Assembly (NCBI GenBank): GCA_965223845.1
Contig: CBDCXR010000004.1
Coordinates: 1,792,001 to 1,856,000 of the forward strand
From: Planctomycetota bacterium
GTDB lineage: Bacteria; Planctomycetota; UBA8108; SXIK01
DNA: 64,000 nt
Reading direction: 5' to 3'
Part shown: positions 22,356 to 51,687 of the stretch, piece after piece
How positions within the stretch are numbered: the first letter of the stretch is position 1
How the letters are laid out: each line of letters opens with the position of its first letter
Position numbers and translations under genes: made by a program
Notes under the pieces: generated by a model
Database searches by the model: none
The model's input: the letters and a program-made list of their open reading frames with translations, nothing else
Told to the model about the DNA's origin: nothing

Positions 22356-22937
22356 ATGCCCAGCGAGACGGTCGCGTTTCTCCGTGAGTACTTTCGCGGT
22401 CCCCGCGCAGTCGGCGCCGTCGCGCCGAGCTCACGCTTCCTCGCGCGCACGATGGTCGAGAGTGGCGATCTCGCCGCGGCAAAGACGATCGTCGAGCTCG
22501 GACCCGGCACGGGCGCGTTTACTCAGGCCATCGCCGAAGCCGTCGATGACTCGGCGACGTTCCTCGCACTCGAAATCAATCCGGAGTTCGCCGAACGCGT
22601 CCGTGAGCGAGTGCCCCGCGCGACGGTGTACAACGACTCGGCCGCGAATCTCGCGTCGTATCTCGAGAGACACGGGAAAGACGGAGCCGATTGCGTCCTT
22701 TCCGGACTACCCTGGGCGAGCCTTCCGATGAAGGTGCAGGACAGCGTGATGGCGGCGGTGGTGGACAACCTCCGACCCGGCGGAATCTTCGCGACTTTCG
22801 CGTACATCCACGCGCTCGCGCTTCCGAATGCACGCAAGTTTCGCCGGCGGCTCGAGTCGCTCTTCGGCAAAGTCGAGTTGAGCCCAATCGTGTGGCGAAA
22901 CGTTCCGCCTGCGTTCGTCTATCGTTGCCGACGGTGA
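22356..22937 (+). CDS. Class I SAM methyltransferase (PmtA-like phospholipid N-methyltransferase family)
   Basis: GAVAPSSRFLA, VELGPGTG, LSGLPW, RNVPPAFVY. Confidence 0.82.
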   Translation: MPSETVAFLREYFRGPRAVGAVAPSSRFLARTMVESGDLAAAKTIVELGPGTGAFTQAIAEAVDDSATFLALEINPEFAERVRERVPRATVYNDSAANLASYLERHGKDGADCVLSGLPWASLPMKVQDSVMAAVVDNLRPGGIFATFAYIHALALPNARKFRRRLESLFGKVELSPIVWRNVPPAFVYRCRR

Positions 22938-22942
22938 CGGCG

Positions 22943-27550: not shown

Positions 27551-28744
27551 ATGCATCAAGACGATAAGGGAGGACGGGGCACCGCCGAGGTTCAGCGTCT
27601 GATCCGCGTCTATCGCGACGGGCTCCTCGAGGATGTCCTGCCGTTTTGGATCGAGCACTGCGTCGATCGGGAGCACGGCGGTTTTCACATGGCGCTAGAT
27701 CGCGACGGGACGCTTCTCGATACAGACAAGGGCGTCTGGCAGCAGTGTCGATTCACTTGGCTGCTCGGCGAGCTCTACAACAACGTGGAAGCGCGAAGCG
27801 ATTGGCTCGAGCTCGCGCGTCACGGAATCGATTTCATCGATCGCCACTGCTTCGATCCCGCCGACGGGCGCATGTGGTTCCACGTCGACCGGAAAGGCGC
27901 GCCGATTCGAAAGCGACGTTACGCGTTCTCCGAGAGCTTCGCGGCCATCGCTTACGGCGAGCTCGCGCGAGCGACTGGTGAAGCCCGGTACGCCGAGAAG
28001 GCGCGGAAAACGTTTCGGCGATTCATCGATCACCATCTGGAGCCGAAGAACATTTCGCCGAAATTCACGGACCTCCGGCCGACTCGAGGGCTCGGTTTCC
28101 CGATGATCACGATCAACACGGCGCAGGAACTCCGCGAGTCCATCGGACTCGAGGACGCCGACGCTTGGATCGATCGGAGCGTCGATGCGATTCGCCGCTA
28201 CCACGTGAAACCCGAGATCGAGTGTGTGATGGAGACCGTCGGCCCGAACGGCGAGCTGATCGACCATTTCGATGGTCGCACTCTCAATCCCGGACACGCC
28301 ATCGAAGGGGCATGGTTCATATTCGCCGAGGGGGAACATCGCGGAGATCGAGACCTGATCGAGCTCGGCTCTCGGATGCTCGACTGGATGTGGGGGCGCG
28401 GCTGGGACGAAGAGTACGGCGGTCTTCTCTACTTCACCGACGTCAAAGGACTGCCCGTCCAGGAGTACTGGCACGACATGAAGTTTTGGTGGCCGCACAA
28501 CGAGGCCATCATCGCGACGCTCTACGCCTACCGGCTCACGGGCGAAGAAAAGTACCGCGCGTGGCACCATGCCGTCCACGACTGGTCCTATCGCCACTTT
28601 CCCGATCCCGAGCACGGGGAGTGGTACGGTTACCTCCACCGCGATGGTCGCATCTCCGTTCCGCTCAAGGGGAATCTTTGGAAGGGTCCGTTTCACCTTC
28701 CGAGAATGCAACTGCGGTGCTGGAAGCTTCTCGAGCGCGATTGA
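27551..28744 (+). CDS. N-acylglucosamine 2-epimerase (AGE family)
   Basis: LPFW..D..GG, DKGVWQQCR, NPGHAIE, MKFWWPHNE, KGPFHLPR. Confidence 0.9.
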   Translation: MHQDDKGGRGTAEVQRLIRVYRDGLLEDVLPFWIEHCVDREHGGFHMALDRDGTLLDTDKGVWQQCRFTWLLGELYNNVEARSDWLELARHGIDFIDRHCFDPADGRMWFHVDRKGAPIRKRRYAFSESFAAIAYGELARATGEARYAEKARKTFRRFIDHHLEPKNISPKFTDLRPTRGLGFPMITINTAQELRESIGLEDADAWIDRSVDAIRRYHVKPEIECVMETVGPNGELIDHFDGRTLNPGHAIEGAWFIFAEGEHRGDRDLIELGSRMLDWMWGRGWDEEYGGLLYFTDVKGLPVQEYWHDMKFWWPHNEAIIATLYAYRLTGEEKYRAWHHAVHDWSYRHFPDPEHGEWYGYLHRDGRISVPLKGNLWKGPFHLPRMQLRCWKLLERD

Positions 28745-28760
28745 CGACGAGAACGTACGT

Positions 28761-29702
28761 TCAAACGGCGGTGGTCTCGTCCGGCTCTCGCACGCCAGAG
28801 AAACCAATGCGTTCGAGCTCTTTGGCCATCGCGTCGTATTCGTCGCGCTCCAGGGGACGGAGAGGCCGCCGCACCGGGCCGCAGTCGATTCCGGTCAGTT
28901 TCATCGCGGCTTTCATCGCTCGGTGGCCACCGTAGCGAAGAAACACATCGATGAACGACATGCTCTGTAGCTGAAGCTCCCGCGCCGTGCTCCAGTCTCC
29001 GGCCGCGAAGGCGTCGAGGAGACGGAGGTAGAGCGGAGCGGCGAACGCGTATGTGGTCCCGACGGCGCCGTCGCACCCGAAGGCGAGCCCGCTGAGCAGA
29101 ATCTCGTCGCAGCCGAAGAGGATGTTGTACCGGCCACCTTCGAGAGCGACGCACCGCGCGAGCTCCATCAGGTCGGTGTCGCTGAATTTGACGCCCGCGA
29201 GATTGGGAATCACGCTCGCACTGCGCTCTAGGAACTCGACTACGGATAGATGAACGCCACTTAGCGCGGGCAAGTGGTAGAAGTAGAATGGGAGCTCCGG
29301 CGCGCCGGCCGCCACCCCGGCGCAAAACTCGACGAGATCACTCGTGCTCGCCGGGGTGAAGAAGTACGGTGCTATGCATGCGATCGCGTCGGCGCCCACC
29401 GACTGAGCGGACTCCGCGAGCGCGCGACACTCCGCGATCGACGTACCGCCGACGTGAGCGACGATCGCGAGATCCGTTCCGGCTGCGGCGTCGACCCATC
29501 GGCGGCACACCGATCGGCGTTCATCCGCGGTGAGCGAGCTGAATTCGCCCGTCGTACCGCAGGGAAACGCGCCATTCACTCCGTCCGCCACGAGTCTCTC
29601 CGCGAGTGCATCGATCGTATCGAGAGCGAGCGAGCCGTCCGGCCGCATGGGTGTGTACGGCGCCGCGATCAATCCGGTCAGTTTTCGCTCGTATGCGCTC
29701 AT
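28761..29702 (-). CDS. nanA: N-acetylneuraminate lyase (DapA/NanA family)
   Basis: CGTTGE, FYFYHLP, GVKFSD, GCDE, GAVGTTY; sits next to the AGE epimerase. Confidence 0.8.
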   Translation of the reverse strand: MSAYERKLTGLIAAPYTPMRPDGSLALDTIDALAERLVADGVNGAFPCGTTGEFSSLTADERRSVCRRWVDAAAGTDLAIVAHVGGTSIAECRALAESAQSVGADAIACIAPYFFTPASTSDLVEFCAGVAAGAPELPFYFYHLPALSGVHLSVVEFLERSASVIPNLAGVKFSDTDLMELARCVALEGGRYNILFGCDEILLSGLAFGCDGAVGTTYAFAAPLYLRLLDAFAAGDWSTARELQLQSMSFIDVFLRYGGHRAMKAAMKLTGIDCGPVRRPLRPLERDEYDAMAKELERIGFSGVREPDETTAV

Positions 29703-29718
29703 GTTCGTTCGGCCCACT

Positions 29719-32700
29719 TCAGGGGCAGATCTCCGGGCAGCCTGCGATGGGCACGCACGTCACGCCGCGAACGGGACGAGGGCCGCTCTGAAAGAGGTAA
29801 TTGAGTAGATAGATGACATCGGCGATATTCACGCCGTCATCGCCGTTCGCGTCAAGAAGCGCGACATTACCGGTATGCTCGAACGTGCCGTCGCCGCAGG
29901 GAACGGTGTCGTCTCCCGCGACGAAGAGTCGCTGAACGAGGAACACGGCGTCGGATATGTCGAGATTCGCATCTTGGTTCGCGTCGGAGGGAATCTGACG
30001 GCCTCCGGCCGGAGTCGGTGCGATTCCGGGCGTCCCGAGCGTTTCTCCACTCGCTCGCCACGCGGTCGAGTCGCTCCATTCGCTCGGATCACTCGTCGCG
30101 TCGACGATCTCGAGCGACGCGCCGTCTCCGTCTGCCGCCGGATACCAGTCATCGCGGTACGCAAATTCGAGGATCAACCGACCCGCGGCGTCGGTGAGCG
30201 CCACCACGTCGCCAGCGTTTCCCAGGTTACCGTCGTACTCCCCGGCTACGGATAAATCATCTCCGTAGCGGCTCTCGAACGCGGCGCGATTCTTGACGAG
30301 AAGCACGACCTCGCCTGGAGCGAGATCGTCGGCGGGGTCGGGAGAGGAGAAGCGAAATCGAATGCCGGTAAGCTCGACGCCGAACGCACTGAGCGGTTTC
30401 GCTCCTATGTTCTGGAGCTCGAGAAACTCGAATTCGTCGCGCGCGAACGGGCTGTCGGCTTGAGGAGCAGGGGGATGAAACATCAGCTCGGTGACCCGAA
30501 GTGGAGACGTATCGCCTACAAACGTCGCTTCGTTGAGCGCGCTCCAGGTTTCGCCGACGCGCGCGCGCGCACGGACGAGCGTCGTTCTTTCGAGGGAAAT
30601 TCCTCCTGCGGCGGTGCCGACAGCGACGAGTTCGGGCACGAACAATAGATCGCTGCTGTTCGCACCGGCGTTGAGCCCGTGGATCGCGAGGAGATTTTCG
30701 CCGGGGCGGAGCGCGTCGATGTGGGCGCTCACATCGACGCTTTCGAATTCGAGCGCCGCGCCGTCGGAGTGCCCGCGGGTCGCCCCTGCGTTCCAGACGA
30801 GGTCGTCCGGTGCATTTCGACTAGCCACGAGCCGACCGTTCAGATAGGCCGCGTAACCGTCGTCGTACTTCATTCGAAGAGTCAGAATCGAGAAGCCGGA
30901 GGGATCCTCGACCGAGAACGGGATGCGCACGTAAACGGACTCGTTTTGGTCGAACGCGTCCGCCTCGACGTCGAGACCGATCTCGTCTTCGAATCCGGAA
31001 GTACGTTCATAACCGACACCCGTCGTGCCGGCGATCCAACTCGCATCGTTGAACTCGATTTCCGTCCAGCTTCGACCGAGACCATCATCGCTCGGGACGA
31101 ACGCGCGCGCTGATGCACCCTCGGCAACGAGAACGAGACCCTGGTTCTCGACGCGCTGGGCTTCCGGGGAGATCGCACCGCCCTCGAGGCGTGGGTCGGC
31201 GCCGTCGAGCGTGTAGAACATCTCGCCCTCGGCCGCGTTGACCGCGAGCGCGAATCCGTTTCCGATCGGGCCGCCGTGCTGACTGAAGACCGGTGCGTCG
31301 ACGTCGGGATAGAGATCTACGCTCCGGAATTGACTGAGGACGATGTCCGTTCGGAGAGGAAAGTACCGCGTGAGCTTGTCAGCGATCACCACTTCCCACT
31401 GATCGATGCGGTTCCGGGGAGGTTCGATCCGAGTGTCGCCCCAACGCGCCGCCTCGGGATCCATCGCACGCTCGAGCTCCTCGACGATCCCGCGGAACCG
31501 CGCTGAGTTCGCTTCCGGAGTGAACGCCCCGGCGTGAAAGAAATGCCGGTGAACTCGATCCCCGAAGCGAACGCGAAACTCCGCATTGCGTCTCAGACGA
31601 TCGTAGAGAATCCCGGGAGAATGATCGACCGCGGTCGTGAGCTTTCCGCTTTCCGCGAGGCGAAACATGAAGTTTTCGGCATCCCACGAAACGAAGTGAA
31701 ATGGCTCGACGTCTTCCGCGTCCCGGATCGCGTACCAGTTGTTGTGCGGCCAGTCCTGGTTTCCGCCGAAGAGATTGAGAATCAGATAGTCGATGAAGGA
31801 ATCGAGCTCGAGGCGCTCGGATACCTCGGCGTAGACCGCATTCGAAGCGATATTGCCCTTCACAAGGGCGATCAACTCGTCCCACGCGTCGCGAGTTCCG
31901 CTCACGAGCTCCGGCGGACTCCCGTTCGCGGAGCCGCGCGGCCGCTGCTTGAGGACGTCGTAGTCCTCGGCGTCGCCGCCGAAATACGATGCCGCGAACT
32001 CCTCGTCGGGTCGCTCGGTTACGTTGTAGACGCCCCAGTAGAGGCCATCGATGTACAGGTGCACCCAGGTTCCGCGGAGCGAGTGGTGTCCCGTCGCCCA
32101 CTGACTCAGATAGGCGAATCGATCGCGGAAGAGGAGAGCGGACTCCCAGCCGATCGTTTCGCCGTCACCCGCTGTGTGGACGGACCACGTATCGAAGTAG
32201 TTGCCACGGAGGACGAGCGTATCGAAGGAGTCGGCGGCCTCGGGGCCGAGAACGGGCTGACGAAGCCTCCCGGCTCCGTACTCTCGTCTGAAGGCGAGAC
32301 GAAACGATTTCTTTCCGAGCGGGCGGAATCGGCTGCCCGCGCCCTGAATGCGTACGCCGGCGTTCAGCTGAAACTCGAGCCTGCCATCGGGATCGATCCA
32401 CTCGACCGAGGTTTCGCGTTCCCACGCTCGGCCCGACAGGGTGGGATTGGCGTGAATCCCGTTCGGTCCGAACATGTCTTCGACCGGAAGCACGAGCGAG
32501 AGAGCGGGGAGCGAACGAAAATCCTGGATGATGTCCGTGCCGAGTCGAGGGTCGTTCACGACGTTCGGGTCGACGTCGTAATCCCAGTCCGAGTTGTTCG
32601 GGAATCCCGCTCCGGTCTGCTCGAGGACGTCGTTCAGAAAAATGTACGTGTGAGTCACGACAGGCGACGGACCCCATCCCGGGCGCGTCGCGATCGCGCG

Positions 32701-34077
32701 GAGCGCAGTCGTCGTCGCGATCGGGACCGACCCCGACGCGACGAAGCCGTGCGACGGGCTCGGCTTCGATCCGTCGAGCGTGTAGCGAATCTCACTCTCC
32801 GGTGTCGCCGAGGCTAACGTGACGTCGAACGGCGCATCGTAGTACCCTCGGCGGACGCTGAACTCGGGCGGCTCGACGAACCCCTCGACCGCTTCGCCGT
32901 TCGGCTGCCCGGGAGTGGGCGTGAGGAAATAGCCTTCCTCGCCGTAGGAGACGTCGACGAACTGCTCGGGATACCGAGGGGTGAACTCCGTCGTCACTCG
33001 ACCATCGGGCGCGACGAGCGCGAAGTACTCACCGGTCGAGCTCAGACGAAAGTTCGTGTGCAGCTCCGGCAGATCGGTCGACGCTCCAGGCGGCGCAAAG
33101 ACGCCCGTCGCATCCCAACGAACGTAGTCGACTTCGCCGGCGGCTTGGCCCGATGAACAACAGTCGAGCATAAAGATCGATCGCCGCGCGTCCGCACCGT
33201 CGTCGCCGAGCGCATCTCCGATCAGCTCGCCGTTGCGCCACACAAAGTAGACCTCCCGATCCGCATCGTACGCCACCCGGAACGTTACGAAGGTCGTCGT
33301 GTTGTCGCCTTCGTGAAGGAGGGTGCCGGACCAGGTGCGAGTCTCCTCGAGGTCGACCCGGAGAATGACGCGCTCCGTGCCGTTCGCGAGCCAGAGAATC
33401 GCTCCGGGATTCGAGCCCGCGGAGGCCGTCACCCGAAGGCGCGTCTCGAAGGTGTACGATGTCGCGGGGTCCACTTCGTCGCTCCAACTCGCCGAGTTGA
33501 TGAGTGCCCACTGTCCGCTGAGGACGGTTTCGAACGAGAGGACGCCCGCTCCGACCGAGAGTGCCGGCGGCTCCGCGCCCGCACCGAGATTGAATCCGTC
33601 CATCGTCCAGCCGTCGGCGGCGCCTTCCTCCGTCGGCAGCACGCCATCGGCGCTGAACTCGAGGCCGTGCGGAAACTCGCTTGACGCGCGCGGAAGGAAT
33701 CGTCCCCCGCCGCCGTCGACCGCGCGGCGATCCTTGCCGGACGCGAATACGACGAGGCGGTCGCCCGACGGGATGTCCACGGACGGAAAAACCCACTTCG
33801 CGAGGTCGGAAGGGTCATCGGTCACCGACCAACCCTCGGTGGACACCGAGTCCGGACCGGGGTTGAAAACTTCGAACCAGTCAGATCGCTCGCCATCCAC
33901 GTCGCGGAGCGACGAGTCGTTCAGCGTGAGAAACTCGGCGAGAACGAGATCTTGAGCTGGGAGTCTCGGCGTCGCGAGGGTGCCGACTAACGCGATGAAC
34001 GCACACGTCGACACGATTGCCGCGCCCGGTGCGACGCGCGAGAGAGCACGTACTCGTCGCTCGTCAGCAAGACACAT
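29719..34077 (-). CDS. Secreted CotH-kinase-family protein with lamin-tail domains, an inserted lectin-like domain and a dockerin-like tail
   Basis: LTD motifs SDWFEVFN and ELHTNFRL; IRYTLDGS; CotH motifs RIQGAGSR, KKSFRL, YWGVYNVTER, NQDWPHNN, WDAE; DANQD/DANGD tail. Start uncertain. Confidence 0.8.
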   Translation of the reverse strand: MCLADERRVRALSRVAPGAAIVSTCAFIALVGTLATPRLPAQDLVLAEFLTLNDSSLRDVDGERSDWFEVFNPGPDSVSTEGWSVTDDPSDLAKWVFPSVDIPSGDRLVVFASGKDRRAVDGGGGRFLPRASSEFPHGLEFSADGVLPTEEGAADGWTMDGFNLGAGAEPPALSVGAGVLSFETVLSGQWALINSASWSDEVDPATSYTFETRLRVTASAGSNPGAILWLANGTERVILRVDLEETRTWSGTLLHEGDNTTTFVTFRVAYDADREVYFVWRNGELIGDALGDDGADARRSIFMLDCCSSGQAAGEVDYVRWDATGVFAPPGASTDLPELHTNFRLSSTGEYFALVAPDGRVTTEFTPRYPEQFVDVSYGEEGYFLTPTPGQPNGEAVEGFVEPPEFSVRRGYYDAPFDVTLASATPESEIRYTLDGSKPSPSHGFVASGSVPIATTTALRAIATRPGWGPSPVVTHTYIFLNDVLEQTGAGFPNNSDWDYDVDPNVVNDPRLGTDIIQDFRSLPALSLVLPVEDMFGPNGIHANPTLSGRAWERETSVEWIDPDGRLEFQLNAGVRIQGAGSRFRPLGKKSFRLAFRREYGAGRLRQPVLGPEAADSFDTLVLRGNYFDTWSVHTAGDGETIGWESALLFRDRFAYLSQWATGHHSLRGTWVHLYIDGLYWGVYNVTERPDEEFAASYFGGDAEDYDVLKQRPRGSANGSPPELVSGTRDAWDELIALVKGNIASNAVYAEVSERLELDSFIDYLILNLFGGNQDWPHNNWYAIRDAEDVEPFHFVSWDAENFMFRLAESGKLTTAVDHSPGILYDRLRRNAEFRVRFGDRVHRHFFHAGAFTPEANSARFRGIVEELERAMDPEAARWGDTRIEPPRNRIDQWEVVIADKLTRYFPLRTDIVLSQFRSVDLYPDVDAPVFSQHGGPIGNGFALAVNAAEGEMFYTLDGADPRLEGGAISPEAQRVENQGLVLVAEGASARAFVPSDDGLGRSWTEIEFNDASWIAGTTGVGYERTSGFEDEIGLDVEADAFDQNESVYVRIPFSVEDPSGFSILTLRMKYDDGYAAYLNGRLVASRNAPDDLVWNAGATRGHSDGAALEFESVDVSAHIDALRPGENLLAIHGLNAGANSSDLLFVPELVAVGTAAGGISLERTTLVRARARVGETWSALNEATFVGDTSPLRVTELMFHPPAPQADSPFARDEFEFLELQNIGAKPLSAFGVELTGIRFRFSSPDPADDLAPGEVVLLVKNRAAFESRYGDDLSVAGEYDGNLGNAGDVVALTDAAGRLILEFAYRDDWYPAADGDGASLEIVDATSDPSEWSDSTAWRASGETLGTPGIAPTPAGGRQIPSDANQDANLDISDAVFLVQRLFVAGDDTVPCGDGTFEHTGNVALLDANGDDGVNIADVIYLLNYLFQSGPRPVRGVTCVPIAGCPEICP

Positions 34078-37000
34078 ACTCGTCACACCCGATGTCCTGA
34101 GGGGATCCGACGGGATCGGGATCCTCTCCGCACGCTGTCTCCGGGCTCCCCGGTGTCGTGACCGGCGGACCGTCACCGAAAAGATGATTGAGGAGGTAGA
34201 TCGCGTCCGCGATGTTCACTCCACCATCATTGTTCGCGTCGCCCGATTCCGCGCACTGGGGAGGGTCGCCATCGCCAAACAGACCGTTCAGAAGAAAGAT
34301 CGCGTCGGCGATGTTCGAGGCGGCGTCGTCATTCGGATCGCCGCGGTTGAACCGCGGGCGCGGATCGCCGTCTCCGGGGGCGTAGGCACCTGTGGCGTCC
34401 CAATAGATCGCGTCGAATTCACCGTCGACCTGGGCGGATGAGCAGCAATCGATGAGAAACACCGCCGTTCGCGCGTCCGCACCTTCGTCCGGAAGACTCT
34501 CGCCGATGAGCTCGCCGTTGCGCCAGACGAAGTAGAGACCGGTCGGGGCGTGGAAGGCGACACGGATCGAAACGAACTCTCCCGCGTTCTCTTCCTCGTC
34601 GAGGACGACGCCCGACCACGTGACGACGCTCGCTAGGTCGACGCGGAGGATCAGCCGGTGAGTACCGTTCGCGAGCCACAGAATCACGCCGGGATTGGGC
34701 GCGTCGGTCGCGTCGACCTTGACGCTGACCTCGAAGGTATAGGATCTGCTCACATTCACCTCCGCGGCCCACGCCGACCCGCCGGCCATGACGATCGACT
34801 GCTGACCCGGGAGAACGGAACGAAAACGAAGCACCCCGTCGACGACCGTCAGCGACGGTGGAGTATCGCCGTCGATATTCCACGCGAGGTCTTCCACCCA
34901 GCCGTCGTTCGCTCCCTCGACGGACGGAAGGACTCCGTCCTCGTCGAAGTGGAGCTGGTGCTCAAAGTCCTCCGCGGCGAGCTCAGGGAATTCGTCGAAT
35001 CGGTCCGGAGTCGCGGAGACTTCCGCGGAGTTCGCGGATTCGTTCCCGGCGAGATCGACTGCGGTCACGACGTAATAGTAGGTGGTTCCGAGGTCGACAG
35101 CGTCATCGAAATACTCGAGCTCGAGGAGATCGAGTCCCTCCGCGAGTAGCTCGTACGGACCGCCGCTCGCCTCGGCCCGATAGACGTTGTAGCCGCTCGC
35201 GTCGAGTTCGGGACCGAGCGCCCACTCGAGCCGCACCTCGCCGGCGATAGTGGCGCGCGCCGAGACGCCGGTCGGCGGAAGAGGAGGCGTGATGTCGATT
35301 CCCGCCAGCGGAGTGAGCGCGATTTCGTCGGATACATCCGAAATGTTCCGATTCACGTCGACTGCGGCGACGACGTAGTAGTAGGTCGTGCCATTCGTCA
35401 GCCCTTCGTCGATGTAGGTCGTCGACGATCCCGAGTGAACGACGACGTAGTCACCGCCCGAAGTTTCACTTCGGCCGACCTCGTAGCCGCTCAGATCGTC
35501 CTCCGTATTCGCATTCCAGCTGAGGTGCACGCGGGAATCTTCGATCTCTCCTGCGAGCCCCGTCGGTTTCGCAGGTGGGGTCGTGTCCCCGGGATCGGTG
35601 GGGGGAAAGTACGCGCCCGTCGCGTCCCAGCCCACAAAATCGAACGCACCGGTCGCCTGTGCACTCGAGCAGCAGTCGATGAGAAAAATCGATCGCCGCG
35701 CGTCGCCGCCGTCGTCGAGGAGCTCGCTCCCGACGAGCGAACCGTTCCGCCACACGTAGTAGCCATCCGTCGGTGCGTCGTACGCGACGCGGATCGTCAC
35801 GAGCTCGGTGTTGTCCCCTTCGTCGAGAAGGTTTCCCGTCCACTGGGTCGTGCTCGCGGTATCGACGCGTACGATGATCCGCTCGACACCGTTCGCGAGC
35901 CAGAGCACTGCGCCGGGATTGGCGCCGTCGGAGCTCGTGACCCGGAGCTTCGCCTCGAACGTGTACGACGTTCCCGGGTCGACTTCCTCCGCCCACGCGA
36001 CGTTGTTGATCAGCGCCCACTGACCCGCTAGCGCGGTATCGAAGACGAGTTCTCCGCCGACGACGTCGAGTGACGGAGGCACGGCGCCGGGCCCGGTGTT
36101 GAAGCCGTCCATGGTCCAGCCGTCGGCGGCTCCCTCTTCGGTCGGGAGAACGCCGTCGGAATCGAAGGCGAGCTGGTGGGGGAACTCGTCCGCGTCTTTC
36201 TCGACCTCCTCGTCGATGCTCACGGTGAGAACGGAACTCGCCTCGGCGCTCGGCGTGGAAGGGTTTCCCGCTTCGTCCACAGCGACGATGACGTAGTAGT
36301 AGCGAACGAGGAAGACGGCGCTCTCGTCGACGTACTCGCTCACACCGACGCCTTCGGCGACCAAATCCTCATACGGTCCACCAGGAGTCTCAGCGCGAAG
36401 CACGTCGTATCCCGCGAGGTCGGCCTCGAGATTGTCGTCCCAGTCGAGCCGGATCCCGCCGCCGTCCGGCGTTGCCATCACCCCGGTTGGAGCTGCGGGT
36501 GGCGTGACGTCCTGTCCCACTTCCGGAGTAGCGTCGACCTCCGCCGAAGCATCCGATTCGTTGCCGCTCCCGTCGGTCGCCGTGACGACATAGTAGTACG
36601 TCATTCCATTCGTGACGTTGTCGTCGACGAATTCACTCGCAAAGACACCCGTACGCGTGAGCGTAGGATCGCCGCCACTCGTCTCCGACCGCTTTACGGT
36701 GTAGCACAGAAGGTCACTCTCCGCGTTGTCATCCCAGTCGAGGAGAACTCGTCCGTCTTCAGCCTGGGCGATGAGTCCGGTCGGCGCGTCGGGCGCCGTC
36801 GCATCGCCGCCGCCGCCGGTCGGCGCATACGCACCGCTCGAGTCCCAACGAATCCAGTCGATCTCGCCGGCCGATTCGTTGGTCGACCCGTAGTCGACGA
36901 TGAATACCGCGTTGCGCGCGTCGTTTGCCGTTCCATCGGGGTCGCGGGCGATCAGCTCACCGTTTCGCCAGACGAAGTACCAGCCGGTGTCGGGGTCGAA

Positions 37001-37567
37001 CGCGATTCGAACCGTGACGAAATCGGAGGCGTTGTCCCCCTCATGAATCACGGGCGCCGCTCCGCCGACGCCCCAGCGAATCTCGTCGACGTCCACGATC
37101 GCGACGGCGCGTCGACCGGTTCCGTTCGCGAGCCAGATCGCCGTGCCGGGGTCGGAAACGGATTCGGCACCGTCTACGGGACTGGTGACCTTGAGACGAA
37201 TCTCGAAGGTATAGGGCGTGTCGGGCCCAATCTCAGAGGACCAAGCGGAATTGCCGTCGGGTTGGTCGATGGAAAAGAATCGTCCGCCGCCCTCGCCCTG
37301 ACCCGTTGTATCGAACGCGAACACCCCGCCGGCGACGGAGAACGACGGCGGAACGTCGGCGTCCGCAACCCACGCCCCGGTCTCGACCCAGCCATCGGCC
37401 ACTCCCTCCTCCGAGGGCAGCACGCCGTCCGCCTCGAACTCGAGGAAATGGTCGAACTCGGACGAGTTCAGAGGGTCGAGAGAGTCGCCGAACGCCGGGG
37501 AAAGACCGATGCCGCCGAGAACGACGGCGAACGCGGCACGGAAGATCTTCATCGTGGTTTCTCTCAT
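34064..37567 (-). CDS. Secreted protein: three lectin-like repeats, four Fn3 domains, dockerin-like tail
   Basis: Signal peptide. Fn3 motifs (PTGL..L.W..YYYVVTA.D..GNES). FNRGDPNDD..NIADAI and GDANNDGGVNIADAI. Confidence 0.85.
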   Translation of the reverse strand: MRETTMKIFRAAFAVVLGGIGLSPAFGDSLDPLNSSEFDHFLEFEADGVLPSEEGVADGWVETGAWVADADVPPSFSVAGGVFAFDTTGQGEGGGRFFSIDQPDGNSAWSSEIGPDTPYTFEIRLKVTSPVDGAESVSDPGTAIWLANGTGRRAVAIVDVDEIRWGVGGAAPVIHEGDNASDFVTVRIAFDPDTGWYFVWRNGELIARDPDGTANDARNAVFIVDYGSTNESAGEIDWIRWDSSGAYAPTGGGGDATAPDAPTGLIAQAEDGRVLLDWDDNAESDLLCYTVKRSETSGGDPTLTRTGVFASEFVDDNVTNGMTYYYVVTATDGSGNESDASAEVDATPEVGQDVTPPAAPTGVMATPDGGGIRLDWDDNLEADLAGYDVLRAETPGGPYEDLVAEGVGVSEYVDESAVFLVRYYYVIVAVDEAGNPSTPSAEASSVLTVSIDEEVEKDADEFPHQLAFDSDGVLPTEEGAADGWTMDGFNTGPGAVPPSLDVVGGELVFDTALAGQWALINNVAWAEEVDPGTSYTFEAKLRVTSSDGANPGAVLWLANGVERIIVRVDTASTTQWTGNLLDEGDNTELVTIRVAYDAPTDGYYVWRNGSLVGSELLDDGGDARRSIFLIDCCSSAQATGAFDFVGWDATGAYFPPTDPGDTTPPAKPTGLAGEIEDSRVHLSWNANTEDDLSGYEVGRSETSGGDYVVVHSGSSTTYIDEGLTNGTTYYYVVAAVDVNRNISDVSDEIALTPLAGIDITPPLPPTGVSARATIAGEVRLEWALGPELDASGYNVYRAEASGGPYELLAEGLDLLELEYFDDAVDLGTTYYYVVTAVDLAGNESANSAEVSATPDRFDEFPELAAEDFEHQLHFDEDGVLPSVEGANDGWVEDLAWNIDGDTPPSLTVVDGVLRFRSVLPGQQSIVMAGGSAWAAEVNVSRSYTFEVSVKVDATDAPNPGVILWLANGTHRLILRVDLASVVTWSGVVLDEEENAGEFVSIRVAFHAPTGLYFVWRNGELIGESLPDEGADARTAVFLIDCCSSAQVDGEFDAIYWDATGAYAPGDGDPRPRFNRGDPNDDAASNIADAIFLLNGLFGDGDPPQCAESGDANNDGGVNIADAIYLLNHLFGDGPPVTTPGSPETACGEDPDPVGSPQDIGCDEYVSC

Positions 37568-37649
37568 GCGAACCGAGATTCAAACTTCGACGCGGAATCG
37601 GGCGGCCTCTCGATCGCCTAGCGAGAAGGCCGCCGAGCTCCGCCGCACG

Positions 37650-40600
37650 TCACGGGATGTCCGCCGGACATCCATCACTCCCGGCACAGTCGAATGCCTC
37701 GACCACGCCGAAACAGTCGACACCTTGAACCGGTGGGGCTCCGCCGTCGAACAGGTATCGAGCGAGCGAAATCACATCGTTGATGTCGAACGCCCCGTTC
37801 CCACTCACGTCGAGGATGGCGTCGGTACCTTCCCCCGTACCGCAGGGCGGTTCCACCGGATCGGCGAGCAGAAAGAATCCCGGGAAGAGAACGTGGATCC
37901 CGCAGATCACGTCGGAGAGGTTTCGTGTCCCGTCGACGTTGCAGTCGCCGGCGAGGACCGGAGTCCCGGCGGGTCCGAAGATCCCCGTCGAAGTCCAGCA
38001 GACGTGATCGAACTCTCCCGTAACCTGTACGCTCGAACAGCAATCGATGAGGAACACCGCGGTTCGCCCACCCGCGGCGGCGGCTTGGGGCGGAAGACCG
38101 TTTCCGATGAGGACGCCGTCCCGCCACACGAAGTAAAGTCCGCTCACGGCATCGTATCCGATGCGGAAGGTGACGAAATCGGATGCGTTCTCGTTCGCGT
38201 CGAGCGGAATGTCCGGCCAGGCGAAAGTGCCCATAGTGTCGACGCGAAGAATGAATCGCGTTGAGCCGTTCGCGAGCCAGAGAATTACGCCGCCATTGTC
38301 ACCGGAGCTCGCCGCCACCTTCATTCTGACTTCGAATGTGTACGACACGTTCGCGTCGATCGACTCCTCCCACGTCGAGCCGTCGCCCAACGTGATCGCT
38401 TGCTGTCCACCGAGAACCGAGTCGAACACGAGTCGTCCTCCGAACACGGCGAGCGTGGGCGGATCCGGGTCGTTGGCGTTCCACGGCGCGTCCTCGGCCC
38501 AACCCTGCTCGGCACCTTCGACCGACGGGAGCTGTCCGTCCGTGTCAAACGTTAGACAGTGGAACCCTCCCGCTCCGCGTGGTTCGGGGGCGTTCGGCGT
38601 CGCGCTCGCTTCGTCGGAGTCGCCGGACTCGTTGCCAGAGGTATCGACGGCGGTCACCACGTAGAACGATTCGACGCCATTCGTGACGTCGTCGTCGATG
38701 TACTCACTCGCGAGGACCCCCTCCGCGATCAGGTCGTACGGTCCCCCGGTCACCGCCGAGCGCCGAACGTTGTAGCTGGCGACATCGTCCTCGGGGTTCG
38801 TGTCCCAATCGAGTGCGACGACGTTGACGCCACCGACCGCCGTGAGTCCGGTAGGGGGGCCGGGAGGAACATCGTCGATCTGAGTCGCCGGCGGGAAAAT
38901 TCCCTCGCCGTCCCAGCAGACGTAGTCCATCTCACCCTCGGCTTGTGTGCTCGAGCAGCAGTCGATGAGGAAGATCGCCGTGCGTCCCGTATCGGCCTGG
39001 GGCGCCAGTCCCGCGCCGATCTCGAATCCGTTCCTCCAGACCCAATAGCGCTTGGAGATCCCGTCGTATCCGATGCGGATCGTGACGAAGTTCGTCATGT
39101 TGTCGCCTTCGCGGAGCGTCTCGTCGGAGAAGCGCGCAACGCGATCGGGATAGATGCGGAGGATCAGGCGATTGCTCCCGTTCGCGATCCAGAGGATCGC
39201 ACCGCCCTCACTCGATGCGACCCGGATGCTCGTCTCGAACGTGAACGAGGTCGAACCGTCGATTTCCGTCGACCACGCCGAGGCGCCGCCAGCCGGTTGA
39301 TCCACGGAGTGCTGACCGGGGAGGACGGAGTTGAACTGGACGACGCCCCCCGACACCGCCAGGGTCGGAGGTTCCCCTTCGGTCGCGTTCCAGCTCGCGC
39401 TCTCGGTCCAGCCGTCGGCGGCTCCCTCGACCGAAGGGAACTCGCCTTCGATGTCGAACGTGAGGCAGTGAGTGAACTGGTCCGCGTCCAGGACTTCGCC
39501 GAATCCTTCCGTGGCGCTCGACTCGTCGGACGGATCGGACTCGTTGTCGCAGTTGTCGACCGCCGTCACGACGTAGAAACGCGGTGCGCCATCCGCAAGC
39601 GACATGTCGACGAAATCGCTCGAGCTCACTGCTTCCGCGATGAGGTCGTACGGTCCGCCGGTGGTGTCCGACCCGTAGACGTTGTAGCCGACGACGTCTT
39701 CTTCGACGTTCGAGTCCCAATCGAGACCGATCGCGCCGACTCCGGGTGCGGCGATGAGTCCGGTCGGAGCGGCCGGCGCGATATCGTCGCAATCGCCGCC
39801 GGGCGGCGGGTAGATGCCGGTCGCATCCCAGCAGACGTAGTCGACTTCTGCGTCGACCTCATTCGAGCCGCCGAAGTCGACGAGGATCACCCAGTTGTTC
39901 GCCACCTGGATGTCGCCGGGCCCGAGGTCGGTCGCGATTTCGACCCCGTTTCGCCACACCGTCGCGAGGCCCGTCGCCCCGTCATGACCGATGCGCACGG
40001 TGACGAAGTCCGACGAGTTGTCCCCTTCGTGGATCGTCGTGTTTCGGCCCCAACGGATGTCGTTCATCCCCACGATCGCGACTGCCGTCTCGCTGGCTTC
40101 CCCGTTCCCGAGCCAGATCGTGAAGCCCGGGTCCGCACCGCCTTCGTTCGTCACGCGAACGCGTGCTTCGAACGTGTAGGACGTCCCCGGATCCACCTCT
40201 GCCGCCCACGCCGAGGTGTCCACCGGCTGGCGCACGTCGTGACCGCCGCCCACGCCGACCGTCTTCACCGTCAGGAGCCCACCAGCGACCTCGAGCGACG
40301 GTGGGTTCCCCGGAATGTTCCAGCCCGTCTCCTGCCAACCGTCTGCGGCGCCCTCCACCGACGGAATCTCGCCGTCCGTATCGAATTCGAGCGCGTGGGG
40401 GAATGTCGAGGAGTCCTTCGCCGCAGGCGTAAATGCTCCCGTCGCGTCCCAGCGAACATAGTCCACTTCCGCCGCTACCTCGTTCGCGCCCCCGAAGTCA
40501 GCGAGAATCACCCAGTTGTTGGCGCTCTGGATCTCGGTGGAACCGAGGCCCGTCCCGACCTCCACCCCGTCTCGGTACACCGTCGAAAGACCGGTCCCCG

Positions 40601-42362
40601 CGTCGAAAGCGATGCGCACCGTCACCAGGTCACCCGAGTTGTCGTTCGTATCGAGGCTCTGCGTGTTCGTTCCCCACATCAGCTCGTTCGTCCGCACCTG
40701 AAGCACGGCCGTCTCGGCGGCAACTCCGTTCCCGAGCCACACGCTGAATCCCGGTGACGAACCGCCCTGATCCGTCACGCGAAGACGAGTCTCGAACGTG
40801 TACGAGGTCGTGTCGTCGACTTCGGTCGCCCAGGCCGAGGTCCCTGTCGGTTGGCGCACGTCGTGACCGCCGCCTACCCCGACTGTGTCGATGCGCAGTA
40901 GACCACCCGAGACCTCGAGCGACGGCGGCTGGCCAAAGTTCCAGCTCGTCTCCTGCCAGCCGTCTGCCGCTCCCTCGACGGACGGAATCTCTCCGTCCGT
41001 GTCGAAGAGGAGCTTATGCGCGAGCTCGGATGCGTCGCGCGTACCGTCGTCCGGTTCGTAGATGCCGGTCGCATCCCAGCGAACGTAGTCGACTTCTGCG
41101 TCGACCTCATTCGAGCCGCCGAAGTCGACGAGGATCACCCAGTTGTTCGCCACCTGGATGTCGCCGGGCCCGAGGTCGGTCGCGATTTCGACCCCGTTTC
41201 GCCACACCGTCGCGAGGCCCGTCGCCCCGTCATGACCGATGCGCACGGTGACGAAGTCCGACGAGTTGTCCCCTTCGTGGATCGTCGTGTTTCGGCCCCA
41301 ACGGATGTCGTTCATCCCCACGATCGCGACTGCCGTCTCGCTGGCTTCCCCGTTCCCGAGCCAGATCGTGAAGCCCGGGTCCGCACCGCCTTCGTTCGTC
41401 ACGCGAACGCGTGCTTCGAACGTGTAGGACGTCCCCGGATCCACCTCTGCCGCCCACGCCGAGGTGTCCACCGGCTGGCGCACGTCGTGACCGCCGCCCA
41501 CGCCGACCGTCTTCACCGTCAGGAGCCCACCAGCGACCTCGAGCGACGGTGGGTTCCCCGGAATGTTCCAGCCCGTCTCCTGCCAACCGTCTGCGGCGCC
41601 CTCCACCGACGGAATCTCGCCGTCCGTATCGAATTCGAGCGCGTGGGGGAATGTCGAGGAGTCCTTCGCCGCAGGCGTAAATGCTCCCGTCGCGTCCCAG
41701 CGAACATAGTCCACTTCCGCCGCTACCTCGTTCGCGCCCCCGAAGTCAGCGAGAATCACCCAGTTGTTGGCGCTCTGGATCTCGGTGGAACCGAGGCCCG
41801 TCCCGACCTCCACCCCGTCTCGGTACACCGTCGAAAGACCGGCCCCCGCGTCGAAAGCGATGCGCACCGTCACCAGGTCACCCGAGTTGTCGTTCGTATC
41901 GAGGCTCTGCGTGTTCGTTCCCCACATCAGCTCGTTCGTCCGCACCTGAAGCACGGCCGTCTCGGCGGCAACTCCGTTCCCGAGCCACACGCTGAATCCC
42001 GGTGACGAACCGCCCTGATCCGTCACGCGAAGACGAGTCTCGAACGTGTACGAGGTCGTGTCGTCGACTTCGGTCGCCCAGGCCGAGGTCCCTGTCGGTT
42101 GGCGCACGTCGTGACCGCCGCCTACCCCGACTGTGTCGATGCGCAGTAGACCACCCGAGACCTCGAGCGACGGCGGCTGGCCAAAGTTCCAGCTCGTCTC
42201 CTGCCAGCCGTCTGCCGCTCCCTCGACGGACGGAATCTCTCCGTCGACACTGAATTCGAGACCGTGTCCGAATGCGCTCGAATCTCGCTTGCCATCGATC
42301 GCGAACACCGTCGTTCCCAGGGCGATGCTCGCGATCACGGCCAAAATGTTCGACTTGAACAT
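37650..42362 (-). CDS. Secreted protein: six lectin-like repeats, two Fn3 domains, dockerin-like tail
   Basis: Signal peptide MFKSNILAVIASIALGTTVFA. Repeated EGAADGW..SYTFE..WL.NG..VTVRI..DYV.WD unit. GDCNVDG and DVSGNG tail. Confidence 0.85.
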   Translation of the reverse strand: MFKSNILAVIASIALGTTVFAIDGKRDSSAFGHGLEFSVDGEIPSVEGAADGWQETSWNFGQPPSLEVSGGLLRIDTVGVGGGHDVRQPTGTSAWATEVDDTTSYTFETRLRVTDQGGSSPGFSVWLGNGVAAETAVLQVRTNELMWGTNTQSLDTNDNSGDLVTVRIAFDAGAGLSTVYRDGVEVGTGLGSTEIQSANNWVILADFGGANEVAAEVDYVRWDATGAFTPAAKDSSTFPHALEFDTDGEIPSVEGAADGWQETGWNIPGNPPSLEVAGGLLTVKTVGVGGGHDVRQPVDTSAWAAEVDPGTSYTFEARVRVTNEGGADPGFTIWLGNGEASETAVAIVGMNDIRWGRNTTIHEGDNSSDFVTVRIGHDGATGLATVWRNGVEIATDLGPGDIQVANNWVILVDFGGSNEVDAEVDYVRWDATGIYEPDDGTRDASELAHKLLFDTDGEIPSVEGAADGWQETSWNFGQPPSLEVSGGLLRIDTVGVGGGHDVRQPTGTSAWATEVDDTTSYTFETRLRVTDQGGSSPGFSVWLGNGVAAETAVLQVRTNELMWGTNTQSLDTNDNSGDLVTVRIAFDAGTGLSTVYRDGVEVGTGLGSTEIQSANNWVILADFGGANEVAAEVDYVRWDATGAFTPAAKDSSTFPHALEFDTDGEIPSVEGAADGWQETGWNIPGNPPSLEVAGGLLTVKTVGVGGGHDVRQPVDTSAWAAEVDPGTSYTFEARVRVTNEGGADPGFTIWLGNGEASETAVAIVGMNDIRWGRNTTIHEGDNSSDFVTVRIGHDGATGLATVWRNGVEIATDLGPGDIQVANNWVILVDFGGSNEVDAEVDYVCWDATGIYPPPGGDCDDIAPAAPTGLIAAPGVGAIGLDWDSNVEEDVVGYNVYGSDTTGGPYDLIAEAVSSSDFVDMSLADGAPRFYVVTAVDNCDNESDPSDESSATEGFGEVLDADQFTHCLTFDIEGEFPSVEGAADGWTESASWNATEGEPPTLAVSGGVVQFNSVLPGQHSVDQPAGGASAWSTEIDGSTSFTFETSIRVASSEGGAILWIANGSNRLILRIYPDRVARFSDETLREGDNMTNFVTIRIGYDGISKRYWVWRNGFEIGAGLAPQADTGRTAIFLIDCCSSTQAEGEMDYVCWDGEGIFPPATQIDDVPPGPPTGLTAVGGVNVVALDWDTNPEDDVASYNVRRSAVTGGPYDLIAEGVLASEYIDDDVTNGVESFYVVTAVDTSGNESGDSDEASATPNAPEPRGAGGFHCLTFDTDGQLPSVEGAEQGWAEDAPWNANDPDPPTLAVFGGRLVFDSVLGGQQAITLGDGSTWEESIDANVSYTFEVRMKVAASSGDNGGVILWLANGSTRFILRVDTMGTFAWPDIPLDANENASDFVTFRIGYDAVSGLYFVWRDGVLIGNGLPPQAAAAGGRTAVFLIDCCSSVQVTGEFDHVCWTSTGIFGPAGTPVLAGDCNVDGTRNLSDVICGIHVLFPGFFLLADPVEPPCGTGEGTDAILDVSGNGAFDINDVISLARYLFDGGAPPVQGVDCFGVVEAFDCAGSDGCPADIP
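39810..40997. repeat. Direct repeat copy 1 (1188 bp)
   Basis: Matches 41058-42245 at offset 1248. I saw differences only at 39833-39834 and 40595. Confidence 0.95.
41058..42245. repeat. Direct repeat copy 2 (1188 bp)
   Basis: See copy 1; shadow ORFs are duplicated at the same 1248-bp offset. Confidence 0.95.
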
Positions 42363-42419: not shown

Positions 42420-43211
42420 TCAGGTAGTTTCCTCGTTCGATGAGATCGCCTGATCTCGATTGCGTTTCGTGTAGTCGAGAACGTACTGCCGCCCGATTCG
42501 GATGTGCTCGAGCATCCATTCCCGCGCGCCGTCGCTGTCTCGAGCGCGAAGGAGGGCGACGAGACGTCCATGTCCCCGGTGCGTGGATTCAGCGGCTTCA
42601 CTCGTGAGCAGATCGGGTTGCGTGCGTACGGGCGCAAAGGCTGACGCCACGAGGAGAAGATCGGAGACGATCTTCGTAAGCCAGCGGTTCCGCGCCGCCC
42701 GAACTAGCGCGATGTGAAAACGCTCCTCGTTGGCGCCCCATCGCGACGCTTGTTCGGTCGTCGCAGCCGCTCGTTCGTTGACCGCGATCTCGTCGATGAG
42801 CTCGCGCCACTCCGCGAGGAGGTGGTCGAGCTCGTCGAGTTCGTGTTGAGTGATATGGATCGCGGCCTCGGCCGCGGCAAACGGCTCGAGGTTCTCGCGC
42901 AGATCGTAGAGCTGAGCGAGCTCGACGCGCGAGAGTGTGCGCACGTACGCACCGCCGCCGCGGACGTACTCGACGAGTCCTTCGCTCGCGAGCTGATTGA
43001 TGGCTTCGCGAACGGGCGTGAAGCTCGTTCCGAGCTCCTCCGCGAGAGCGCGATTGACGAGACGCGTTCCGGGAGGGAGATCACCGCGAGCGAGCCGGAC
43101 TCGGAGCTCGTCGTAGGCACGTCGAGCGAGTGTGTCTTTCAATCTCGATCCCTCTGTGGAGGGGGACGAAAAAGGGGTTCGGACCGCGGGGCGGTCGACC
43201 GACAGCGGCAT
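42420..43211 (-). CDS. GntR/FadR-family transcriptional regulator (FCD domain)
   Basis: LPPGTRL..LAEELGTSFTPVREAI..L..EGLV; FCD motifs RENLE, FH..L..AARN, EHI. Confidence 0.9.
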   Translation of the reverse strand: MPLSVDRPAVRTPFSSPSTEGSRLKDTLARRAYDELRVRLARGDLPPGTRLVNRALAEELGTSFTPVREAINQLASEGLVEYVRGGGAYVRTLSRVELAQLYDLRENLEPFAAAEAAIHITQHELDELDHLLAEWRELIDEIAVNERAAATTEQASRWGANEERFHIALVRAARNRWLTKIVSDLLLVASAFAPVRTQPDLLTSEAAESTHRGHGRLVALLRARDSDGAREWMLEHIRIGRQYVLDYTKRNRDQAISSNEETT

Positions 43212-43228
43212 GTGTGCAGCGCCGATCA

Positions 43229-43238
43229 TGTTATAACA
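43229..43238. promoter_or_regulatory. Palindrome TGTTATAACA, candidate GntR operator and extended -10
   Basis: Perfect 10-bp palindrome in an AT-rich patch between divergent genes. Fits the GT-Nx-AC GntR operator pattern. Confidence 0.55.
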
Positions 43239-43396
43239 CGCAATAATAATCAATAGCGAATCCGGGAGAACCTCGGAATTGAGGTGCGCCAGGCCGGCCG
43301 GATCCGGGAGAGAATACGGGGCCTCCGCCGACCACGACTCCGTGAGAACGACGAACTCTCGTGCTTGAATCCGGCTCTTCTACGACGATCTCGACG

Positions 43397-46851: not shown

Positions 46852-46853
46852 AC

Positions 46854-51676: not shown

Positions 51677-51687
51677 GGCACCGTTTC

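Follow-up and report, generated by a model that had tools for sequence, protein, structure and literature searches.

What do three neighbouring proteins that together carry ten copies of one lectin-like unit do beside the sialic-acid genes of a planctomycete? We address this question for a stretch of 64,000 nucleotides (nt) from a Planctomycetota bacterium (GenBank assembly GCA_965223845.1, contig CBDCXR010000004.1, positions 1,792,001 to 1,856,000), hereafter the window. Three co-oriented genes on its minus strand encode proteins with six, three and one copies of the unit, designated P0001, P0002 and P0003, respectively. The ~195-residue (aa) unit is a ConA-like beta-sandwich lectin module, distantly homologous to the N-terminal wing with which Vibrio cholerae sialidase binds sialic acid. 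Because the units are akin to this wing and their genes stand in one string with genes of sialic-acid breakdown, the three proteins probably capture sialic-acid-bearing glycans. We lean slightly towards the reading in which they would be secreted multivalent arrays that hold sialylated glycans for a neighbouring enzyme and for NanA (N-acetylneuraminate lyase) and AGE (N-acylglucosamine 2-epimerase), both encoded next to them.

The unit count is far beyond chance. An opening motif, H.L.F..[DE]G..P[ST].EG, and a closing motif, D..(.)W(D/T)..G, each occur six, three and one times in P0001, P0002 and P0003. The ten units align over ~200 columns, of which 33 are invariant, the diverged copies being 40-70% identical. 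A profile built from them and run against the six-frame translation of the window returned exactly ten units (E 1e-84 to 1e-93) and nothing further at E<=1e-3. One loop of the unit reads DCCSS in five copies, DFGG in four and DYGS in one. Units 1+2 and 3+4 of P0001 form a 1248-nt tandem duplicate (96-100% identical), and the units thus fall into at least two sequence types; Tandem Repeats Finder reported no match, the period being longer than its limit.

Besides chance-level matches, only Fn3 was recognised by Pfam and NCBIfam in P0001 and P0002, with no catalytic domain found in either; P0001 has no Pfam fn3 match at E<=0.01. The Pfam domains of P0003 are CotH (84 bits), LTD (46 bits, two stretches), Fn3_assoc and CHB_HEX_C_1, and its database form (P0016, 1455 aa) starts at GTG 34086. 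No BNR or sialidase domain was found by Pfam or NCBIfam in any of the three. All three N-termini, read by eye, look like signal peptides. Orthologues of P0001 with six units (P0004, P0005, P0006 and P0008) and of P0002 with three units (P0010-P0014) are present in the databases. An earlier reading of this DNA, made without database searches (the sequence-only reading), had described three co-oriented proteins between gntR and nanA with 6+3+1 copies of a unit that varies as CC, FG or YG, a two-loop dockerin-like Cys-rich end on each protein, and two proteins without a recognisable catalytic domain. Each of these statements holds: the open reading frames (ORFs) and their GntR/FCD and NanA-like flanks are in place, the motif counts, alignment and profile give the same numbers, and the alignment and Foldseek comparison of the tails, given below, agree with the description of the ends.

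The relationship to the Vibrio lectin emerges from the wider family and from the fold. When 1.84 billion representatives, clustered at 50% identity, were searched with the ten-unit profile, 387 clusters passed E<=1e-3; of these, 122 reached E<=1e-10 and 16 reached E<=1e-30. A broader profile, A2, with 51 rows (8 window units and 43 short family members) had 13 matches at E<=10 among the sequences of the Protein Data Bank (PDB); the top three are V. cholerae sialidase (1W0O, 2W68 and 1KIT; E 3.1e-7, 2.1e-6 and 2.4e-6), and the next has an E-value of 0.043. The match covers the N-terminal lectin wing, residues ~20-217, and places ANG..R of the unit opposite YANGTQR118 of the Vibrio domain. AlphaFold, run with A2 on the second unit of P0002 (unit 8), gave a model with a pLDDT of 95.2 and a pTM of 0.91. 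When it was compared with the PDB by Foldseek, ranks 1-3 were chains of 2W68, the isolated sialic-acid-binding domain (E 2.9e-8; query and target TM scores, TMq and TMt, 0.70 and 0.71), and ranks 4, 5, 7 and 9 were full-length V. cholerae sialidase. Other ConA-like folds (Emp46p/47p, GH16) rank lower, at TMq of about 0.5-0.6, among 358 matches at E<=1e-3. Two relatives found by the ten-unit profile, P0023 and P0024 (E 1.7e-52 and 3.4e-49; P0024 is 30-33% identical to unit 8), pass the gathering score of PF09264, 'Vibrio cholerae sialidase, lectin insertion' (Sial-lect-inser), in the region of the unit, with 29.3 and 28.5 against 25.8 bits. They are the only two of 146 scanned relatives above that score; P0098 matches below it, and P0024 alone had no match among the PDB sequences. 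The sequence-only reading had likened the residue spacing to that of the lectin wings of V. cholerae sialidase and had proposed the comparison of a single modelled unit with them; with 2W68 as the top structural match, the A2 profile match and the PF09264 passes, this likeness is borne out as a shared fold and a remote homology. Fold and remote homology, as judged from the model and the profiles, fit carbohydrate-binding module family 40 (CBM40) of the Vibrio type, of which the N-terminal wing is the founding member, but we do not file the unit as a proven CBM40.

Other family assignments were considered. DUF6645 and PF22585 (Sialidase-like_CBM), to which the ESM Atlas pointed, were matched by no scanned family member at the thresholds used. 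PF25832 and PF25833, precomputed for some orthologues, are not the family of the unit, as the six-unit protein has neither.

The G+C content of the window is ~65%, and Pfam recognises in it the Planctomycete-specific pairs of PSCyt/PSD and DUF1552 genes. On the minus strand the order is gntR/FCD, the six-unit gene, the three-unit gene, the one-unit/CotH gene and nanA, with intergenic gaps of 57, 82, -23 and 1 nt; the gene for P0003 thus overlaps the end of that for P0002 by 23 nt, and its stop lies 1 nt before nanA. The closest PDB relatives of the NanA-like product are N-acetylneuraminate lyases (E 1e-76), and its top NCBIfam models are also N-acetylneuraminate lyase, with scores under their equivalog cut-offs. 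The AGE product scores 390 bits with the NCBIfam AGE model, under its cut-off of 600. The large enzyme beyond AGE joins a BNR_2 sialidase-like propeller to sulfatase and SASA domains and has weak PDB matches to sialidases (E 1e-7). A lyase, an epimerase, a sialidase-like protein and a regulator therefore lie side by side, as in a nan locus. Judging by gene spacing, the three array genes may be co-transcribed with nanA under the NanR-like GntR/FCD regulator. A scan for promoters and terminators was uninformative (promoter-like 0 against 1.7 expected, terminator-like 10 against 10.3) and gave no operon boundaries. As a side observation, the single chain encoded at 22691..27544 (+) would be a 'decapping' enzyme for O-acetylated, sulfated sialoglycans.

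Features of the array proteins and of the neighbouring sialic-acid genes, in window coordinates
Feature	Position	Strand	Description
GntR/FCD-family regulator	42420..43253	-	Head of the string; NanR-like by family; Pfam GntR 65 bits, FCD 75 bits; 57 nt upstream of the P0001 gene
P0001, six-unit protein	37650..42362	-	1570 aa; signal-peptide-like N-terminus, four units, Fn3-like linker, unit, Fn3-like linker, unit, dockerin-like tail
P0001 unit 1	41685..42287	-	DFGG type, lacks both Arg
P0001 unit 2	41064..41666	-	DFGG type
P0001 unit 3	40437..41039	-	96% identical to unit 1
P0001 unit 4	39816..40418	-	Protein 100% identical to unit 2
P0001 Fn3-like linker	39489..39815	-	DNA repeat family D10, common to the Fn3 region of P0002
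P0001 unit 5	38901..39488	-	R...R...DCCSS type
P0001 Fn3-like linker	38574..38900	-	Weak NCBIfam MXAN_2561_fam match at aa 1163-1257; DNA repeat D10
P0001 unit 6	37983..38573	-	R...R...DCCSS type
P0001 tail	37653..37982	-	Dockerin-like two-loop module and Cys-rich end; Dockerin_1 13.0 bits
P0002, three-unit protein	34064..37567	-	1167 aa; signal-peptide-like N-terminus, unit, two Fn3, unit, two Fn3, unit, dockerin-like tail
P0002 unit 1	36833..37468	-	R...R...DYGS type
P0002 Fn3 pair	36200..36832	-	NCBIfam stretch at aa 255-349; Pfam fn3 in P0002
P0002 unit 2 (unit 8)	35615..36199	-	R...R...DCCSS type; modelled
P0002 Fn3 pair	34979..35614	-	Pfam fn3 at aa 667-739, E 1.5e-11
P0002 unit 3	34388..34978	-	R...R...DCCSS type
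P0002 tail	34067..34387	-	Dockerin-like module and Cys-rich end; modelled; Dockerin_1 21.9 bits
P0003, one-unit protein	29719..34176	-	1485 aa, likely start GTG 34086; LTD, unit, CHB_HEX_C/Fn3_assoc, CotH, second LTD stretch, dockerin-like tail
P0003 unit	33103..33690	-	R...R...DCCSS type
P0003 CotH kinase-like domain	31429..32355	-	Pfam PF08757 at aa 608-916, E 1.4e-23
P0003 tail	29722..30039	-	Dockerin-like module and Cys-rich end; Dockerin_1 17.8 bits
N-acetylneuraminate lyase (NanA-like)	28761..29717	-	Last gene of the string; Pfam DHDPS
N-acylglucosamine 2-epimerase (AGE)	27551..28744	+	Convergent with nanA; Pfam GlcNAc_2-epim, E 1e-46
BNR_2, sulfatase and SASA fusion	22691..27544	+	1617 aa; sialidase-like propeller, sulfatase and sialate O-acetylesterase domains (Pfam)

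The link to sialic-acid genes, which the sequence-only reading had put forward, recurs in the domain fusions of the family and in other genomes. Of the 150 family representatives listed we scanned 146, having set aside four close orthologues of the window proteins. A GDSL/SGNH esterase domain is found in 14 of them (five of which also have SASA) and BNR_2 in five, so that 16 proteins contain one or the other. One protein has an M60 peptidase domain together with a classical sialidase N-terminal domain, and one has a GH95-like domain. In P0153, a BNR_2/BNR_3 sialidase-type propeller is joined to a unit with the same R...DCCS signature. The PEP-CTERM anchor (39/146) and Dockerin_1 (14/146) indicate that members of the family are typically surface or secreted proteins; a single one, P0155, has a Cohesin domain as well as Dockerin_1. 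Most of the 157 family proteins with at least one domain carry one unit (87) or two (53); three units are found in 11 proteins, four in one, five in one and six in four, every six-unit protein being an orthologue of P0001. One further member, P0109, is a fusion of a sigma-70 domain with the unit.

Profile scanning of genome contigs yielded four loci, L001-L004. Three of them come from metagenome-assembled genomes (MAGs) of uncultured Planctomycetia and encode the cassette with 6+3+1 (L001), 5+3+1 (L002) and 6 units (L003, which reaches the contig end). In L001 and L002 the cassette is preceded by a GntR/FCD gene and adjoins genes for GH33-type sialidases with BNR_assoc_N, a GDSL-sialidase fusion, AGE, sulfatases and a BNR_2-sulfatase fusion. 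The gene order around it differs from that of the window, and the flanks of both loci end inside the third gene, ahead of the place that nanA takes in the window. We also note the BNR_2-sulfatase fusion and the fusion of GDSL to a GH33-type sialidase at L001:1-2511 (-) and L001:4701-7538 (-). In the fourth locus, from a Bacteroidetes MAG, a protein at L004:9731-12391 (+) contains part of a distantly related unit (E 5e-8); it is surrounded by two GH2 enzymes, a sulfatase, a GtaA-type hydrolase, proteins with a tail of the type IX secretion system and a BNR_2 protein. With so few loci, three of which are mutually related, this synteny lends support but is no statistical test.

The ligand question can be approached through the residues of the binding site. 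According to passages of a review citing Moustafa et al. 2004 (PMC12355970), the contacts of the Vibrio N-terminal lectin with N-acetylneuraminic acid (Neu5Ac) are Arg74 and Arg118 (both to the carboxylate), Gln188, Gly196, Ser197 and Ser198. We mapped these positions onto the units by profile alignment via A2, which is not a structural superposition. The counterpart of Arg118 is Arg in six of the ten units (units 5-6 of P0001, all units of P0002 and that of P0003) and Thr in units 1-4 of P0001. The same six units have a second Arg at the position of Gln188, where the other four have Asn. In place of Arg74, five units have Gln and five have Gly. Gly196-Ser197-Ser198 corresponds to C-C-S in five units, Y-G-S in one and F-G-G in four. 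Binding of sialic acid by the units is only partly supported by such residues, and the unit types R..R..DCCSS, DYGS and DFGG probably read different epitopes.

A separate observation concerns the vicinal Cys-Cys of the DCCSS loop (for example, within 35615-36199), which aligns with Gly196-Ser197 of the Vibrio lectin. It occurs in five of the ten units here and, family-wide, in 40-42 of 207 domains, and a vicinal disulfide in the putative binding loop is possible.

Each array protein ends in a module with two loops. In an alignment of seven tails, three from the window and four orthologous, two D.N.D...(I/L)(S/A)D...LF segments are present throughout, and the Cys-rich extension has three invariant Cys. 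All three window tails score under the Pfam Dockerin_1 cut-off of 22.9 bits. The AlphaFold model of the P0002 tail (pLDDT 75) has helices at 26-37 and 59-70. The Foldseek list down to rank 29, which comprises 23 rows, consists entirely of type-I or group-1 dockerins (TMt 0.32-0.79, identity 18-33%, E 8e-3 to 0.3), and no match reaches E<=1e-3; seven of the listed matches align at a root-mean-square deviation below 2 Å. As far as the model goes, the tails have the type-I dockerin fold, and 'dockerin-like' is a fair term at the fold level. They most likely tether the proteins to a partner or to the cell envelope. The short Cys-rich extension that follows each dockerin-like module (within 37653-37982, 34067-34387 and 29722-30039, all on the minus strand) may be a disulfide staple or a sorting signal.

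Under the reading that we favour slightly, the non-catalytic array proteins with signal-peptide-like N-termini would be exported and sit outside the cell, where many weak sites could act together by avidity to retain, close to the cell, glycans that are sialylated and probably also O-acetylated and sulfated. These glycans would be stripped by the neighbouring sialidase-like/sulfatase/SASA enzyme, and the released sialic acid would be catabolised by NanA and AGE. A number of observations weigh against capture of sialic acid. Pfam found no family in the ten single units at E<=10, NCBIfam had no model for the unit, and the ten-unit profile found nothing among the PDB sequences (best E 0.2), so that only the wider family or the fold connects the units with the Vibrio domain, and homology alone does not fix the ligand. 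The second lectin wing of the Vibrio enzyme, a member of the same Pfam family, is not known to bind sialic acid. Arg74 is kept in none of the ten units, and units 1-4 of P0001 keep neither Vibrio arginine; for the capture of sialylated or nonulosonate glycans put forward in the sequence-only reading, the contact residues give partial support, by the Arg118 counterpart in six units. Among 35 units of four species, none of the six Vibrio-contact columns is invariant, and only 56 of 207 domains of the wider family have Arg at the place of Arg118. In 17 units of the R..R..DCC group, five of the six site columns are among the 30 invariant of 191, which is a description and not a test, as four of those five columns defined the group. 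Not all GDSL and BNR_2 domains belong to sialic-acid enzymes, no sialic-acid transporter or ManNAc kinase was recognised among the scanned ORFs of the window, outside which such genes may lie, and sulfatases are encoded in all loci (the window, L001, L002 and L004), which leaves sulfated glycans as an alternative ligand. The units might accordingly be generic ConA-like/LamG-type adhesin or carbohydrate-binding modules with a non-sialic ligand, such as sulfated galactans, glycosaminoglycan-like chains or the underlying glycan after desialylation; the likeness to Vibrio would then reflect common descent only, and the position of nanA a broader sulfated-glycan locus. The variation of the contact columns across unit types, the GH2 enzymes, sulfatase and GtaA-type hydrolase around the Bacteroidetes relative and the many other ConA-like folds scored by Foldseek fit such a ligand. 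However, the top fold and profile matches are specifically the sialic-acid-binding wing, the catalytic fusion partners are almost only SASA/SGNH esterases and BNR propellers, plus the mucin-type M60 peptidase and the GH95-like domain, and the third array gene ends 1 nt from the start of nanA. On balance we regard a non-sialic ligand as possible but doubtful. That the units are themselves enzymes of the ConA-like superfamily, GH16-like glycanases or PL7-like lyases, appears very improbable to us: GH16 glucanases and PL7 lyases do occur among the Foldseek matches from rank 12 on (TMq 0.5-0.63), but they rank below the Vibrio lectin, and ten tandem copies with Fn3 spacers are typical of binding modules. 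The catalytic motif of GH16 is of the ExDxxE type, and a strand of this type is absent from the alignment, where the single invariant Glu is that of SYTFE.

The tails raise a different question, that of a true cohesin-dockerin 'sialosome', in which they would plug into a cohesin scaffold encoded elsewhere in the 7.87-Mb genome and form a machine like the cellulosome or the 'planctosome'. The duplicated Ca-loop/helix pattern and the predicted dockerin fold of the tails, the occurrence of Dockerin_1 in the family and the Cohesin and Dockerin_1 domains of P0155 speak for it. So does the 'planctosome' proposal itself, which, in the parts of the paper that deal with it (PMC6461901), combines cohesin/dockerin modules with an LTD anchoring protein; P0003 carries LTD. 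On the other side, no Cohesin match was found among the scanned ORFs of the window, L001 and L002. The tail profile matches only the three lectin proteins and their orthologues, and the adjacent BNR_2/sulfatase/SASA enzyme has no such tail. In P0065, P0091, P0116 and P0140, Dockerin_1 directly precedes the PEP-CTERM anchor, so that in these four it need not be the tether, and the sub-threshold Pfam scores of all three tails point the same way. Dockerin-bearing enzymes on a cohesin scaffold were thus not found among the scanned ORFs of this locus, and we consider the 'sialosome' unlikely. Of the multivalent surface complex put forward in the sequence-only reading, the dockerin-like fold of the tails is supported; its cohesin partner and a tail on the neighbouring enzyme were not found in the scanned ORFs. 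A more elaborate scenario can be imagined, to which we attach little credence. The three proteins could be glycan-catching arms of a non-cellulosomal, dockerin-based surface machine of Planctomycetes, that is, hexa-, tri- and monovalent CBM40-like arrays of mixed specificities, whose Cys-stabilised dockerins would tether them to a cohesin or another anchor encoded elsewhere. This machine would draw in whole sialoglycans, both sulfated and O-acetylated, such as mucins and marine or host-derived polymers, to be degraded by the sialidase/sulfatase/esterase fusion, with number and type of the N-terminal units rapidly reshuffled by tandem duplication and gene conversion to track glycan targets that change.

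The arrays appear to evolve in two modes. Units 5 and 6 of P0001, units 1 and 3 of P0002 and the unit of P0003 each have their top L001 match at the same position (59-65% identity), and unit 2 of P0002 matches the unit at its own position and that of gene 3 equally well (60% each). By sequence, the units at positions 5-6 of P0001 and those of genes 2 and 3 are positional orthologues across species. Identity in the pairs 1/3 and 2/4 is 96-100% inside the window and inside L003 and 80-82% inside L001, and between species units 1-4 are only 40-71% identical. The first gene of L002, with five units, lacks the 1/3-2/4 pair. In L001 and L003 units 1/3 are of a third type (R, N, DCCG), and the window has four DFGG-type units instead. 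This pattern of identities points to a two-unit block that either duplicates repeatedly or is homogenised by gene conversion (concerted evolution).

Several other genes of the window deserve mention. Two convergent giant ORFs, 54424-58722 (+) of 1432 aa and 58739-62170 (-) of 1143 aa, combine sigma-70 regions 2 and 4 of the extracytoplasmic function (ECF) type with 5-7 CarboxypepD_reg repeats. The ORF at 46848-49166 (+) combines a WD40 propeller with an FGE-sulfatase domain, which resembles sulfatase-maturing enzymes, and lies between two PSCyt/PSD and DUF1552 pairs (43361-46851 and 48776-53028). Four ORFs of 282-423 aa have no Pfam family at E<=0.01: 17981-19252 (+), 21129-22325 (+), 53138-54328 (+) and 62428-63276 (-). 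The second of them has a weak GH88 match and the third a weak match to NCBIfam TIGR03769; two of the four lie just upstream of the sialidase fusion.

Among known systems, the closest to the units is the Vibrio-type CBM40 (PDB 1W0O/1W0P/1KIT and 2W68; PF09264). Both are ConA-like beta-sandwiches of ~195 residues, with the top Foldseek and profile match between them; both have GW near the N-terminus, the (A)NG..R motif and a (D/N)-x-x-S loop, N195-G196-S197-S198 in Vibrio; and relatives of the unit are fused to sialidase-like propellers. The differences are also considerable. Identity is ~14%, and the window units lack a Pfam match. They have no Arg74 counterpart, Gln188 is replaced by Arg or Asn, and in five of the ten Cys-Cys takes the place of Gly-Ser. 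In contrast to the Vibrio domain, the units are not attached to GH33 and are repeated six, three and one times on proteins that are non-catalytic or bear CotH and that end in a dockerin-like tail.

Engineered multivalent CBM40 proteins, in which the V. cholerae domain is repeated in tandem, likewise carry this lectin fold several times per chain. The 2W68 study is reportedly that of Connaris et al. 2009 on engineered tandem CBM40. These constructs repeat one identical domain, whereas the natural arrays, which are conserved across species, mix at least two or three unit types and have Fn3 spacers and a dockerin-like tail. A review (PMC12598746) describes tandem repetition as a widespread means of strengthening, by avidity, the weak affinity of such modules, and the title of PDB entry 2W68 agrees.

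The tails share with cellulosomal type-I dockerins the duplicated loop-helix fold, and the array proteins share with scaffoldins bearing carbohydrate-binding modules the supply of substrate binding by a non-catalytic protein. In the cellulosome, enzymes carry the dockerins and the scaffoldin carries cohesins and the carbohydrate-binding module; here the dockerin is on the lectin proteins and absent from the neighbouring enzyme, and the layout is thus the reverse. The window tails differ further by the Cys-rich extension with its invariant Cys and by their scores under the Pfam cut-off. The 'planctosome' of freshwater Planctomycetes, put forward by Andrei et al. 2019 (PMC6461901), is hypothetical: a cohesin/dockerin assembly of a non-cellulosomal kind, with an LTD-bearing protein among its parts. 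As far as the relevant passages of that paper go, it is a model only, proposed for peptide degradation with peptidase cargo, and comprises neither lectin arrays nor sialic-acid genes; it posits cohesins, which were not found among the scanned ORFs of the window. In literature searches on Planctomycetes with CBM40, dockerin and sialidase, which covered papers outside subscription, we found no description of such lectin arrays. A paper on Planctomycetota sialidases and Nan clusters uses, in the portions of its text available to us, neither 'CBM40' nor 'dockerin' (PMC11929135).

If our reading is true, it adds a widespread lectin family (387 clusters), absent from the scanned Pfam-A and NCBIfam, to the small set of sialic-acid-recognising folds. 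It would also mean that nature already uses the tandem CBM40 avidity that engineers have built by hand for tight sialic-acid binders. The units are candidate reagents with which sialoglycans, or acidic glycans akin to them, could be detected, and this one locus may offer several specificities. Planctomycetes have many sialidases and sulfatases, and their uptake is poorly understood. The arrays would provide a testable handle on how these bacteria find and hold sialylated or sulfated glycans.

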